From a virus (lineage: Duplodnaviria; Heunggongvirae; Uroviricota; Caudoviricetes), in the IMG/VR virus record IMGVR_UViG_2706794493_000018: a stretch of DNA of 8,489 bases; one strand, given 5' to 3'. The notes under the pieces are model-generated. The model saw nothing but the letters and a program-made list of their open reading frames with translations. It had not been told where the DNA came from and ran no database searches. Each line of letters starts with the position of its first letter. Position 1 is the stretch's first letter. Shown here in pieces: positions 5,730-8,350 of this stretch. Position numbers and translations under genes: made by a program.

Positions 5730-5880
5730 GGATATATAGTGATGAGGGTTATGTTTTCTGTGTTTATAATTAACATGTTTATTTTTTGATGGTCATGTAT
5801 TGTGGAAGGTAGATAAAATGTTGCCTGGTGAATTGAAAATATTGATAATCAATCTTCATCATTAAATAAAAGGAGTGCTT

Positions 5881-6699
5881 ATGTGGATTGTGTTAGTACT
5901 GTCACTGTCAACTCTCAGTTGGCATAAGGTAGTGGCTTTTTCATTGTTGACGGTGTCTGTTGTCCTGGCTGTGCTTAATGATATTATTGATTGGTCGGTG
6001 TTATTTTTTGTTGCTACAATCGTTTTTTTTATTATTTTGAAGTTCAACTGGAAATATAACGCCTGGGCTAAATCTATATATGAAGTTGGCATAGTTTTAT
6101 CAGCCATAGCATTATTTTTCCATCTATGGCCAGGGTTTCACAATCCTGTAGTGCTAAATTCTGTTACTGTTGGCCCTCAAAGTACTCCCTATACAATGTA
6201 TTTTAATTTTGATAAAGCGCTGGTGCCATTTTTGTTAGTCCTGTGTACATCTTCTTTGTTTAAAAAAGAAGTAAAATCAGAAGTGTCTTTGTGGAAGTGG
6301 GGGGCTCTGTCGCTCTCTGTTCCTCTTATCCTGTTTTTGGCTGTTTTTTTTGGTGGATTAAAGCCAGAGATTCATTTTCCTGAGTGGTTGCCAGAGTTTA
6401 TATTGGCTAATTTGTTTTTTGTGTCTCTGGCAGAGGAATCATTATTTAGAGGGTATATTCAATCACGGCTATCAGAAGTAACGTCTCCATTGGTTGCATT
6501 AATTGTGGCGGCTTTGTTGTTTGGTTTTTATCACTATTCAGGTGGTGCTTTACTTGTATTATTTGCCACGTTATCTGGTGTTGTGTATGGATTGTCATGG
6601 ATGTGGAGTGGGCGTTTGTGGGTTGCCACCCTTTTCCATTTTGGTTTGAATCTGTGTCACTTGTTATTCTTTACCTATCCATTTTTAAAACATAATTGA
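5881..6699 (+). CDS. CPBP-family intramembrane metalloprotease (CAAX protease / Abi, 'bacteriocin self-immunity' family) with intact catalytic motifs
   Basis: AAGGAG (5869-5874) sits 6 nt before ATG 5881; the track start is GTG 5875. The protein is a highly hydrophobic multi-pass membrane protein. All three CPBP signature motifs are present: EExxxR (EESLFR), FxxxH (FGFYH) and HxxxN (HFGLN). The gene is strongly AT-rich compared with the phage backbone. Confidence 0.85.
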   Translation: MWIVLVLSLSTLSWHKVVAFSLLTVSVVLAVLNDIIDWSVLFFVATIVFFIILKFNWKYNAWAKSIYEVGIVLSAIALFFHLWPGFHNPVVLNSVTVGPQSTPYTMYFNFDKALVPFLLVLCTSSLFKKEVKSEVSLWKWGALSLSVPLILFLAVFFGGLKPEIHFPEWLPEFILANLFFVSLAEESLFRGYIQSRLSEVTSPLVALIVAALLFGFYHYSGGALLVLFATLSGVVYGLSWMWSGRLWVATLFHFGLNLCHLLFFTYPFLKHN

Positions 6700-6837
6700 T
6701 TTTTTCTATGGTTTTAAATTTATAAGACTGAAAAATAGCAGGACGTGACATTTGCATGAAAAATATGCACGGCAAAGCATTTACGTACGTAAAAAATCAG
6801 GTATGCTGTTAAGAGTGGTTATTTCGCCGCATAGCTT

Positions 6838-6863
6838 GACCCCGCCTCTGAGCGGGTTTTTTG
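6838..6863 (+). terminator. Intrinsic terminator about 140 nt downstream of the CPBP gene
   Basis: Hairpin CCCGC-CTCTGA-GCGGG followed by TTTTTT. A promoter-like pair, TTGATT (6697-6702) and TATAAG (6721-6726) with an 18-bp spacer, lies upstream. Confidence 0.55.
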
Positions 6864-6985
6864 TGCCCGCAAAGTAGCGCAGTGCGTTAAATGTGCTGGT
6901 AGTTATTAATACAGGTCTTTCAGCTTGCTGGCTTTTTCGACAAGAGTTATTGGTGTGTCACGTTAACCGGAAAGGGTAAAAAGAC

Positions 6986-7225
6986 ATGCTGAAACAGCAG
7001 GATATGACAGAAACCGCCAGAGTTGTGTTTGATGAATTAAGCGTCACCGAACCGGCGACGGTCGGGGAGATTGCGCAGAATACGTACCTTTCACGCGAGC
7101 GCTGCCAGTTAATACTGACCCAGCTGGTTATGCGGGTCTGGCAGACTATCAGTTCGGTTGTTACAGACGCCTTCAGTCCTGAAGGCTTTTTTATTTGTGG
7201 TAAATGGGCGGCTGGTGGGTGTTAG
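6986..7225 (+). CDS. Small winged-helix-like protein (79 aa), paralogous to the N-terminal domain of the amber-interrupted gene at 425
   Basis: ATG at 6986 with AAGGG upstream. Residues VVFDELSVTEPATVGEIAQNTYLSRERCQLILTQL align with [34 protein letters not shown] from gene 425: VFD, L, AT, a hydrophobic-A pair, the exact tripeptide SRE and the L-x-x-L spacing. Confidence 0.5.
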   Translation: MLKQQDMTETARVVFDELSVTEPATVGEIAQNTYLSRERCQLILTQLVMRVWQTISSVVTDAFSPEGFFICGKWAAGGC

Positions 7226-7319
7226 CGGCACCTGTCAGTCCTTTGCTTATGTGTTGATGATAATTTACCTTTTGGGGCTATAATTGAACTAACCAATTGC
7301 TAATGAAAGTAAAATTATA

Positions 7320-8033
7320 ATGGTTGTTGTCTGTTCAGTTATCATGGTTTGCTCCCCAATTAATATTTTTCTTGAAAAGGATACGTTGTCACTTAAGCCC
7401 GGCTCAGTCGTTCTGGCCACCAAATGCATCAGGGCGCTTTTCCTTATGCATTATGGCAAAGTTAAAATTTTCGATATAAACCATTCCATAGTAAGTCAAT
7501 ATCTGGAAATTCAGCATAAGCTGACAAGAACTCATCTGACTGACGTTCCGCTTTATCTGTCACTGGAACCCAACAACCCTGCGTTGGCTGAGGCTTTAAT
7601 TACCAGCCAGAGATTTTCCGGAGATACCACGGATATGTTTCTTATGATGGCATGCCTGTCGCTGTTTGAATCAGATGAACGGATATTATTATTTTTAAGT
7701 GGATGTTTATCCAGTATAAGTGCCAAAGTCAGGGCGATAATTCAGACAGATATATCAGCAAGCTGGACGCTTGGTGCGATTGCGTTACGCCTGCATATGA
7801 GTGAGAGTTTGTTAAAGATAAAACTGAAAAATGAAGGGCACATGTTCAGTCGCTTGTTGCTGGAAGAGCGGATGCGTGTTGCTGTCAATATGTTATGTTC
7901 CCGGCATGGATATGGACAGGCTGTAGCAGAAAAATGCGGTTATTCAAGCTGGTCCTACTTTATTTCTGTATTTCACCGCTATTATGGCTTCCCGCCAGAC
8001 AGATATGTATCCAGGCAAGGGCTTGATTATTGA
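7320..8033 (+). CDS. AraC/XylS-family transcriptional regulator (Rns/AggR-like C-terminal dual helix-turn-helix)
   Basis: The C-terminal ~100 aa, WTLGAIALRLHMSESLLKIKLKNEGHMFSRLLLEERMRVAVNMLCSRHGYGQAVAEKCGYSSWSYFISVFHRYYGFPPDRY, matches the AraC-family HTH pattern; compare Rns WTLGIIADAF...SASYFIRIFNKHYGVTP as I recall it. The N-terminal ~130 aa is uncharacterised. The start is ATG 7320 or ATG 7344. The gene is AT-rich and heavy in rare codons. Confidence 0.8.
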   Translation: MVVVCSVIMVCSPINIFLEKDTLSLKPGSVVLATKCIRALFLMHYGKVKIFDINHSIVSQYLEIQHKLTRTHLTDVPLYLSLEPNNPALAEALITSQRFSGDTTDMFLMMACLSLFESDERILLFLSGCLSSISAKVRAIIQTDISASWTLGAIALRLHMSESLLKIKLKNEGHMFSRLLLEERMRVAVNMLCSRHGYGQAVAEKCGYSSWSYFISVFHRYYGFPPDRYVSRQGLDY

Positions 8034-8061
8034 TTTTCATCTGATTATTATTTTTTGACCC

Positions 8062-8137
8062 AGCCCTTTAGCTCAGTGGTGAGAGCGAGCGACTCATAAT
8101 CGCCAGGTCGCTGGTTCAAATCCAGCAAGGGCCACCA
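8062..8137 (+). tRNA. tRNA with anticodon CAU, Ile2 (lysidine-type, AUA-reading)-like; Met cannot be excluded
   Basis: Cloverleaf read by hand: D-stem GCTC/GAGC, anticodon loop CTCATAA, T-arm GCTGG-TTCAAAT-CCAGC, encoded CCA. Nearly collinear with E. coli ileX as I recall it, but with an A1-C72 mismatch at the top of the acceptor stem. Confidence 0.85.
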
Positions 8138-8144
8138 TCACATA

Positions 8145-8221
8145 CCGCCATTAGCTCATCAGGAAAGAGCGCCAGCTTTCGAAGCTGGTTGCGCGGAGTT
8201 CGGGTCCCCGAAGGCGGTCCA
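8145..8221 (+). tRNA. tRNA-Arg-like with anticodon UCG; divergent and possibly impaired
   Basis: D-stem GCTC/GAGC with GG in the D-loop, anticodon stem CCAGC/GCTGG with loop TTTCGAA, encoded CCA. It has an A-A mismatch in the acceptor stem, an A-C mismatch in the T-stem and an atypical T-loop TTCGGGT (G at the usual A58 position). Confidence 0.6.
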
Positions 8222-8234
8222 TTATCTGTATCCT

Positions 8235-8311
8235 GCGTTGTTAGCTCAGCCGGACAGAGCAATTGCCTTCTAAGCAATCGGTCACTGGTTCGAATCCAGT
8301 ACAACGCGCCA
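8235..8311 (+). tRNA. tRNA-Arg with anticodon UCU (reads AGA/AGG)
   Basis: Perfect 7-bp acceptor stem GCGTTGT/ACAACGC, D-stem GCTC/GAGC, anticodon stem ATTGC/GCAAT with loop CTTCTAA, T-arm ACTGG-TTCGAAT-CCAGT, discriminator G and encoded CCA. Confidence 0.9.
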
Positions 8312-8324
8312 CACTTATTTTCCC

Positions 8325-8350
8325 TGGCTCGCTTTTGCGGGCCTTTTTTT
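8325..8350 (+). terminator. Intrinsic terminator after the tRNA cluster
   Basis: Stem GGCTCGC-TTTT-GCGGGCC (one G-U pair) followed by eight T residues. Confidence 0.6.

Follow-up and report, generated by a model that had tools for sequence, protein, structure and literature searches.

Do the genes that follow the Q antiterminator gene of a lambdoid prophage form one functional unit driven by Q, or are they separate pieces of cargo? The question is raised by a viral DNA stretch of 8,489 nucleotides (Caudoviricetes; IMG/VR record IMGVR_UViG_2706794493_000018), referred to here in its full length as the window. Between positions 5730 and 8350 of the window, Q is followed by a gene for a CPBP-type intramembrane protease (Z1787), a small open reading frame (ORF; Z1788), the gene for an AraC-type regulator (psrA) and three tRNA genes. 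A preliminary description had considered the three genes a possible uncharacterised module, lying in the slot that holds stx in Stx phages and coupled to Q on prophage induction. The whole is best explained, with high confidence, by two independently acquired AT-rich cassettes that flank a late-control element of the phage, the cargo being psrA and Z1787, both already known. In this arrangement, Z1787 would have been inserted between Q and a conserved block (6786-6863) and would be transcribed in the lysogen from a promoter of its own, independently of Q. The block is most likely the place where RNA polymerase is engaged by this family of Q proteins, 6841-6863 then being tR'. Further downstream, a decayed small ORF would be followed by the second cassette, psrA with its own promoter, and we infer that psrA is additionally read through from the late promoter if Q is made.

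Identity and cassette structure of the segment

Comparison with complete genomes showed that window positions 5344-8489 are identical, at 3146 of 3146 nucleotides, to prophage Sp4 of Escherichia coli O157:H7 Sakai (1176701-1179846). The identical part spans ECs1084 to ECs1087 together with ileZ, argN and argO. The interval 5730-8350 is 100% identical across hundreds of O157:H7 genomes and is covered to at least 80% in 534 complete genomes. Gene order in the window (DUF1627 protein, paa, DUF968, rusA, Q, then the cargo region) marks it as the part of a lambdoid prophage that covers the early-right and late-regulatory regions. The Q protein belongs to the lambdoid antiterminators by its match to PF06530 and by the order DUF968-rusA-Q; it is QuuD-like, a distant relative of Q21 (PDB 6p18 and 6jnx match at E = 1e-7), and falls in phrog_79, 'anti-termination protein Q-like'. 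Judged by these matches, 5730-8350 belongs to an E. coli O157:H7 lambdoid prophage of the Sp4/CP-933N type, of which it forms the late-regulatory segment. The label of an uncharacterised module does not hold, since both psrA (ECs1087/z1789) and Z1787 have been published; psrA is well characterised and Z1787 partly, and the region is to be read as psrA and Z1787 in Sp4/CP-933N and not as a new module. Other parts of the preliminary description were borne out. The segment does carry non-structural cargo of the lysogenic-conversion type in a lambdoid late-regulatory region, with Q and co-directional CPBP and AraC-type genes (PF06530, PF02517 and PF12833/PF00165 all above cut-off), three tRNA genes after the cargo and the two terminators named there, at 6841-6862 and 8326-8351.

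A switch to AT-rich DNA immediately after Q had also been described. Two AT-rich segments are indeed present, at 5730-6785 (GC content 0.285-0.377) and 7251-8033 (0.275-0.423), but the change is not uniform, as 6786-7250 between them has a phage-typical GC content of 0.46-0.49. A scan of 5300-8489 for terminator-like hairpins returned 8 sites against 2.9 +/- 1.9 expected.

The independence of the two cassettes, whose edges are visible in locus alignments, emerges from other prophages. This Q allele and the CPBP gene occur together in 572 of 605 genomes, and their linkage persists down to a CPBP identity of 59%, in a Shigella prophage whose Q is 83% identical. Strain C8 has, in this order, Q, the CPBP gene, a small ORF with an independent 7-nt deletion, a DNA methyltransferase gene and other tRNAs, with the 5730-5880 leader kept. 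The reverse combination is found as well: psr alleles 89-94% identical to the window gene are preceded by a DUF1133-type Q in E2863, by a 221-aa Q in STEC409 and by a 250-aa antiterminator in phiSTEC1575-Stx2k; none of these loci has CPBP, and all three have an intact small ORF and ileZ-argN-argO. Altogether, four Q types are found ahead of the psrA cassette, which in two cases lies directly upstream of stx2 and which alternates with a DNA methylase. From these alignments, CPBP, small ORF and psrA are seen to dissociate freely between prophages. Co-occurrence of the trio had been proposed as a check, and the outcome does not support a single module with its own regulators.

Single members of the arrangement vary in other loci too. 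In one genome (L014, 10886-11365), the CPBP gene is frameshifted (159 aa, without the catalytic motifs) and psrA is kept; in another (L018, 11990-12187), the small ORF is intact (65 aa) in the same Q-CPBP-psrA arrangement. The Shigella prophage mentioned above (L145; 4879-5000 and 5820-8030), with its Q 83% and its CPBP protein 59% identical to the window counterparts, carries a near-consensus TTGACA...TATAAT promoter between Q and CPBP, at the position equivalent to 5730-5880. Its CPBP gene is followed by about 2.2 kb without called genes, holding only one ileZ-like and one argO-like tRNA.

The middle gene had been described as a winged-helix protein. The window copy has no Pfam match, and even intact homologs score 17.4-18.3 bits against TrmB, below the cut-off of 25.6. 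Because one G is missing after 7132 relative to the intact 65-aa homologs, the product departs from all of them after residue 49; by this comparison, the middle ORF is a pseudogene in the window. The features of the segment are collected in Table 1.

Table 1. Features of the Q-to-tRNA segment, in window coordinates
Feature	Position	Strand	Basis or remarks
Q antiterminator (ECs1084/Z1786)	5349-5729	+	PF06530 174.5 bits; RefSeq start ATG 5358
AT-rich cassette 1 (holds Z1787)	5730-6785	+	GC profile
AT-rich leader of the CPBP cassette	5730-5880	+	GC 0.285; promoter-like sites 5790-5819, 5821-5849, 5833-5862; Shine-Dalgarno AAGGAG 5870-5875
CPBP (Rce1/Abi-type) intramembrane glutamic protease gene (Z1787/ECs1085)	5881-6699	+	PF02517 70.6 bits (cut-off 22.4)
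Conserved Q-linked block; candidate late-promoter/qut leader and tR'	6786-6863	+	Alignments
Frameshifted copy of a 65-aa phage protein (ECs1086/Z1788; phrog_331)	6986-7225	+	RefSeq 'TrmB family transcriptional regulator, frameshifted' 6986-7182
Terminator-like hairpin (GCCTTC...GAAGGC and T-run) at the end of the intact small ORF	7169-7192	+	Stem kept, loop varies between phages
AT-rich cassette 2 (psrA)	~7245-8050	+	GC profile, alignment edges
Best sigma-70-like promoter of the region (ATGATA-16 nt-TATAAT, 10/12)	7257-7284	+	Promoter scan; GC 0.275
psrA (ECs1087/z1789), prophage AraC/XylS-type regulator, YdeO/GadX-like	7320-8033	+	PF12833, PF00165 above cut-off
tRNA ileZ (CAU)	8062-8137	+	ARAGORN, Sakai/RefSeq annotation
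tRNA argN (UCG)	8145-8221	+	ARAGORN, Sakai/RefSeq annotation
tRNA argO (UCU)	8235-8311	+	ARAGORN, Sakai/RefSeq annotation
Intrinsic terminator after the tRNA cluster	8326-8351	+	Terminator scan

The cargo genes psrA and Z1787

The AraC-type gene is 100% identical to the Sakai ECs_1087 locus, which a 2026 paper names 'psrA (ecs1087, Sp4)' (PMC13502914) and reviews list as z1789 in O-island 50 (OI-50)/CP-933N. Membership in the AraC/XylS family is given by a C-terminal double helix-turn-helix (residues 155-230) that matches PF12833 at 36.6 bits (cut-off 33.6) and PF00165 at 35.3 bits (cut-off 26.6). PsrA raises gadE and yhiF, so that GAD acid resistance goes up and type III secretion encoded by the enterocyte effacement locus (LEE) is repressed indirectly; it also contributes to persistence in a ruminant model, and has a 90% identical counterpart in PsrB and a further relative in PatE (reviews; PMC13502914). 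The regulator thus links prophage content to acid resistance and type III secretion in enterohaemorrhagic E. coli (EHEC). According to one report, the gene responds to attachment and the HnrS/Hha axis (PMC13502914), which is consistent with xenogeneic silencing of its AT-rich promoter.

That promoter is probably the sigma-70-like site at 7257-7284, which lies downstream of two terminator-like hairpins and just inside the left edge of the psrA cassette. It is kept in the psrA-type locus of phiSTEC1575 and absent from methylase-type loci, and since the psrA and methylase versions diverge from about 7245, the psrA cassette appears to bring its own promoter. Sakai annotates a PsrA of 195 aa; the 237-aa form is supported by conservation of its N-terminus in a 35%-identical homolog. 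About 25 lambdoid phages have distant full-length relatives (27-40% identity) at their Q/lysis end, and in two E. coli prophages one such relative lies just upstream of the holins. As a side observation, psrA is rich in rare codons that the adjacent tRNAs read (ATA for 7 of 17 Ile, AGA/AGG for 6 of 13 Arg). It has 5.5 of them per 100, against 1.4-2.1 in the DUF1627, DUF968 and CPBP genes; nearer to its value are paa with 5.2, Q with 4.9 and rusA with 3.3, all small numbers.

The CPBP gene, which most likely starts at ATG 5881 after the Shine-Dalgarno sequence, encodes a predicted protease of the CPBP/Rce1 family. In addition to the PF02517 match, all three motifs are present (EExxxR as EESLFR at residue 185, FxxxH as FGFYH at 214, HxxxN as HFGLN at 253), and several hydrophobic stretches mark a multi-pass membrane protein by sequence. 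The exact protein is annotated in CP-933N, and the Z1787 primers of an earlier study match the gene exactly at 5898-5918 and 6373-6392 (PMC2654852). In that study, Z1787 of OI-50 was up 2.7-fold on HEp-2 cells, and EHEC without it no longer blocked the STAT-1 phosphorylation that IFN-gamma induces, a loss that complementation reversed only in part (Jandu et al. 2009; PMC2654852). The authors regarded Z1787 as possibly a released protease (PMC2654852). A released protease is unlikely given the predicted multi-pass membrane topology, which makes an indirect effect on host STAT-1 more likely, and the phenotype of the knockout may be a polar effect on psrA.

Attempts to place the protease more precisely came out negative. 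Among the named CPBP subfamilies (myxosortases MrtP/C/X/Z/S/J and the ABC-permease fusion), the best NCBIfam score was 46.2 bits against a cut-off of 435, with the others also far below. No bacteriocin or toxin gene was found beside CPBP in the window or next to its chromosomal relatives, and the PADLOC defence models gave no match for CPBP or PsrA and one insignificant match for the small ORF; by neighbours and PADLOC, the gene does not belong with bacteriocin-immunity or abortive-infection systems. A tblastn search of sequenced phages returned only two weak matches to CPBP, both Listeria phage fragments. Across the Enterobacterales, full-length relatives with about 50% identity are common. 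In Hafnia and Photorhabdus (L141-L144), they are ordinary chromosomal genes directly downstream of modF with housekeeping neighbours, the Hafnia gene adjoining the gal operon, and the Dickeya relative lies among unrelated metabolic genes. E. coli K-12 is not known to have a gene at the position downstream of modF. The context of the chromosomal relatives consists of housekeeping neighbours only and offers no functional clue. The predicted function can be assigned only as that of a membrane-embedded glutamic protease.

Coupling of the cargo to Q on prophage induction, as the preliminary description envisaged, is not borne out by the expression data. RNA-seq of strain EDL933 in LB gave 5 reads per kilobase per million (RPKM) for Z1786 (Q), 39 for Z1787, 11 for Z1788 and 7 for Z1789 (psrA). 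With trimethoprim-sulfamethoxazole, which strongly induced seven other prophages, the values were 0 for Q, 51 for Z1787, 14 for Z1788 and 0 for psrA; Z1787 is listed as up about 5-fold under this treatment in the EDL933 transcriptome. Because Z1787 stands far above Q in LB and goes up while Q is at 0, the data argue for Q-independent expression of Z1787. The one prophage-inducing transcriptome found gave no sign of induction-coupled psrA in this defective prophage, and the literature search found no mitomycin or SOS dataset mentioning CPBP or psrA.

The conserved block and the probable site of Q action

The preliminary description looked for the late promoter and qut site in 5730-5880, directly after Q. 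From the comparison of loci, they are probably not there, and the block at 6786-6863 is the better candidate. The block contains the invariant motif GTTAAGAGTGGTTA at 6808-6821, followed by an intrinsic terminator with its stem at 6841-6856 and a T-run to 6863; a weak promoter-like site (8/12, TTTACG-16 nt-TATGCT) overlaps its start at 6780-6807. Alignments showed that the block is common to loci whose Q proteins are only 45-50% identical to that of the window, and absent from two loci with unrelated Q types, where a terminator is kept at the same position with a different stem sequence. The association was found in both directions. Viral contigs with motif, terminator and 3.5 kb or more of sequence before them all have a Q of the Sp4-Q family upstream on the same strand (36 of 36 loci); among contigs chosen by Q homology, the block follows in 59 of 65, at discrete distances from 40 nt to 3 kb.

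The variation of this distance is informative. In Stx2_EH2201 and PhiR5_1, the block comes directly after Q, starting about 40 nt past its stop codon. In Stx2a_1447, two reverse-strand genes begin 21 nt from the Q stop, so that the late promoter cannot directly follow Q there, and the block comes after those genes. In the K-12 prophage DLP12 (L224, 1957-5399), quuD is followed by the reverse-strand nmpC and then by an identical block (14-mer and flanks), with essD 175 nt further, and this block lies inside the fragment that was cloned as the regulatory region through which Q controls the lysis operon. The Q-to-block gap is an insertion hotspot of 40 nt to 3 kb that takes AT-rich cargo in either orientation (loci L019-L223 and DLP12). 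Its cargo comprises an nmpC-like porin (the largest class, about 40 loci), an NYN-domain protein, a lipoprotein, CPBP, ORF6N fragments, a GIY-YIG nuclease gene in phiP27 and, recognised from sequence only, an AAA ATPase (AbiEii/OLD-like) with a C5 cytosine methyltransferase-like ORF. The block shows what would be looked for in a pR'-qut-tR' region: it is conserved, goes with a single Q family and shares its strand, lies upstream of late genes and has an intrinsic terminator after it, although its promoter match is weak. On balance, the block is somewhat more likely than not to be the Q action site and is a candidate qut. If it is, 6841-6863 would be tR' and the CPBP gene would lie outside the late transcript, whereas psrA and the tRNAs would lie where Q-modified polymerase passes, as had been expected for them. 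The prophage small RNA (sRNA) HnrS was considered as an identity for the block and rejected, as it is encoded in Sp9, Sp10 and Sp12 and not in Sp4; an Rfam scan found nothing at the block, only the tRNAs and STnc100.

How far do other readings account for the same observations? If the three genes were one functional module, a protease with two dedicated regulators driven as a unit by Q-modified polymerase from a promoter in 5730-5880, their common direction and their adjacency in 534 genomes would follow, and the AT-rich, foreign-looking DNA, the promoter-like sites at 5790-5862 and the co-variation of Z1787 and Z1788 across conditions would fit. Such a module is nevertheless highly improbable: CPBP goes with a methylase instead of psrA in C8, other Q types are followed by psr alleles with no CPBP gene, independent frameshifts have hit the middle gene here and in C8, and psrA outlives a frameshifted CPBP gene in L014. 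Moreover, psrA moves opposite to Z1787 under trimethoprim-sulfamethoxazole, and the published action of PsrA on gadE and yhiF needs no protease. A different reading keeps the gene identities but puts pR' directly after Q, at about 5790-5862. CPBP would then lie in the pR'-to-tR' leader and be constitutive in lysogens, like the lambda 6S RNA or StxS, with transcription stopping at 6841-6863 unless Q extends it to psrA and the tRNAs. This would agree with the constitutive activity of pR' in lysogens (PMC7547250), with the three promoter-like sites, the first of which has a -10-like GATAAT about 20 nt downstream, and with the near-consensus promoter of L145, which has no block. It would also agree with the old Q-CPBP linkage and with an uninduced level of Z1787 well above that of Q that drops past the terminator (Z1788 11, psrA 7 RPKM). 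It is unlikely, however, because the reverse-strand cargo in the same gap (the porin of about 40 loci and the two genes of Stx2a_1447) would be transcribed antisense, because the Q-controlled lysis regulatory region of DLP12 lies after nmpC, at the block, and because conservation across the Q family is seen in the block and not in 5730-5880.

It is also conceivable that the block is neither promoter nor qut but only a conserved terminator, leader RNA or small-RNA gene inherited by synteny with the Q family. The block contains no consensus promoter, the RNA fold of 6800-6866 is not stabler than that of shuffled sequence (z = -0.57) and some Q-bearing loci lack the block; yet its 14-mer stayed invariant while the flanking DNA and the Q proteins diverged to 45% identity, and the block invariably shares the strand of Q and lies upstream of late or lysis genes, whatever cargo was inserted, which makes passive inheritance quite unlikely. 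The reading preferred here, two cassettes around a block at which Q acts, has points against it of its own. The scan found no consensus promoter of at least 9/12 that would place a transcription start in the block of the window, Stx2_EH2201 or phiP27. The block is missing from 6 of the 65 Q-selected loci and from L145, despite its 83%-identical Q, and heavy redundancy among the viral-contig loci means that the counts overstate independent support. For the block in Sakai, the EcOnc catalogue lists no Hfq-bound sRNA, its Sp4 entries EcOnc05 and EcOnc08 lying after the tRNAs. The expression values come from one shallow dataset in which multi-copy paralogs of the small ORF confuse read mapping, the function of PsrA is taken from reviews and one 2026 paper, and the old Q-CPBP linkage could mean that CPBP is functionally tied to Q-driven transcription.

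The two-cassette reading can be carried a step further. The block may tentatively be regarded as the true Q-utilisation and late-leader element of the QuuD/Sp4 Q family, the Q-to-block gap as a previously unrecognised, Q-independent hotspot for lysogen-expressed cargo, and CPBP as a selected lysogenic-conversion factor with a role in the envelope or in host interaction; as a whole, this extension is possible but doubtful. Were it true, the STAT-1 phenotype of 2009 would have to be real or else stem from polarity on psrA. A likely Q site downstream of variable cargo changes which prophage cargo genes are expected to respond to induction and is a reason to look again at the Z1787 knockout, with polarity on psrA in mind. 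The interest that remains in the segment is modest and lies in its modular anatomy, in the psr genes upstream of stx2 in some phages and in the Q-to-block cargo hotspot.

The wider window and comparison with known systems

Outside the segment, the window is a mosaic, with junctions close to 3121 and 5343. Identity to a paa-carrying O157 prophage is 100% over 1-3120 and 98.6% over 3123-5343, and at 3121-3122 about 160 nt of that prophage, with the hokD coding sequence, are absent. In no complete E. coli genome is at least 80% of the window found in one place. The early-right region holds a second AT-rich cargo island at 1701-2777 (GC content 0.37 over 1701-2400) with paa, an adhesin of the AcfC family (PF13531, 118 bits); in the closest O157 prophage, a frameshifted fimbrial-protein pseudogene is annotated just upstream of it. 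Of the tRNA genes at the other end, the first is called Met (CAU) by ARAGORN and annotated as ileZ/tRNA-Ile in Sakai and RefSeq. At 8388-8489 on the forward strand, Rfam STnc100 (RF02076) matches at 50.8 bits against a gathering score of 47, the end of the window cutting the element. This match coincides with EcOnc05 of Sp4 (Sakai 1,179,806-1,179,914, or window 8449 onward), which is half of an Hfq-binding sRNA pair at the true stx-equivalent insertion site.

The preliminary description had placed the cargo in the slot of stx, and this was only partly right. The toxin genes lie downstream of the tRNAs in all five Stx phages and prophages inspected (L004, L005, L009, L010 and L013). The cargo of the window lies upstream of the tRNAs, not between tRNAs and lysis genes, and so does not occupy the toxin (moron) slot; in most Stx2a phages, its slot is filled by a DNA methylase. 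Yet close psrA homologs are found directly upstream of stx2. In phiSTEC1575-Stx2k (L004, 5121-7802), the homolog is 89% identical at the amino acid level and in STEC409 (L013, 3667-6324) 91.7% identical at the nucleotide level, in both cases between the small ORF and ileZ-argN-argO. At least two Stx2 phages or prophages thus have a psr-type gene in the late-operon leader, upstream of tRNAs and stx2, and induction of such a toxin phage could co-express a regulator of acid resistance and type III secretion.

One of the known systems closest to the window is the late region of Stx phages (Q-pR'-tR'-[methylase]-ileZ/argN/argO-stxAB), which shares with it the backbone order, the tRNA trio and the small ORF, and in which psrA homologs hold the methylase slot of phiSTEC1575-Stx2k and the STEC409 prophage. 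Unlike these phages, the window has no stx, and the tRNAs are followed by the sRNA (STnc100/EcOnc05) and, in Sakai, by the esterase ECs1088. DLP12 (quuD-nmpC-essD/rrrD/rzpD) has the same Q family, the same block and likewise cargo between Q and block, but there the cargo is a reverse-strand porin and the block precedes the lysis genes, whereas in the window a forward-strand protease gene is followed by the block, the small ORF, psrA and the tRNAs. For the protease, Z1787 of OI-50 (PMC2654852) is the same gene, differing from its published description in the multi-pass membrane topology predicted here, and the CPBP/Rce1/'Abi' family (PF02517) shares the domain and the three motifs, without a fit to any named subfamily and without a toxin neighbour. 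Within the prophage-encoded PsrA/PsrB/PatE group of EHEC O157:H7, the window gene is psrA itself, prophage-borne and near pchA and effector loci, and PsrB-like alleles (91-94% nucleotide identity) occur in the same arrangement of small ORF, psr and tRNAs. PsrA is also similar to YdeO and GadX, the core E. coli activators of the GAD system, and like them acts on gadE, but its scores are far below the equivalog cut-offs: the YdeO model (NF007407) matches over residues 1-229 at E = 9e-30 with 104.1 bits against 348, and the GadX model (NF007432) matches the C-terminus with 88.5 bits against 500. By these scores, PsrA is a homolog of YdeO and GadX and not their ortholog, and belongs to a paralogous, phage-borne family (phrog_1450).

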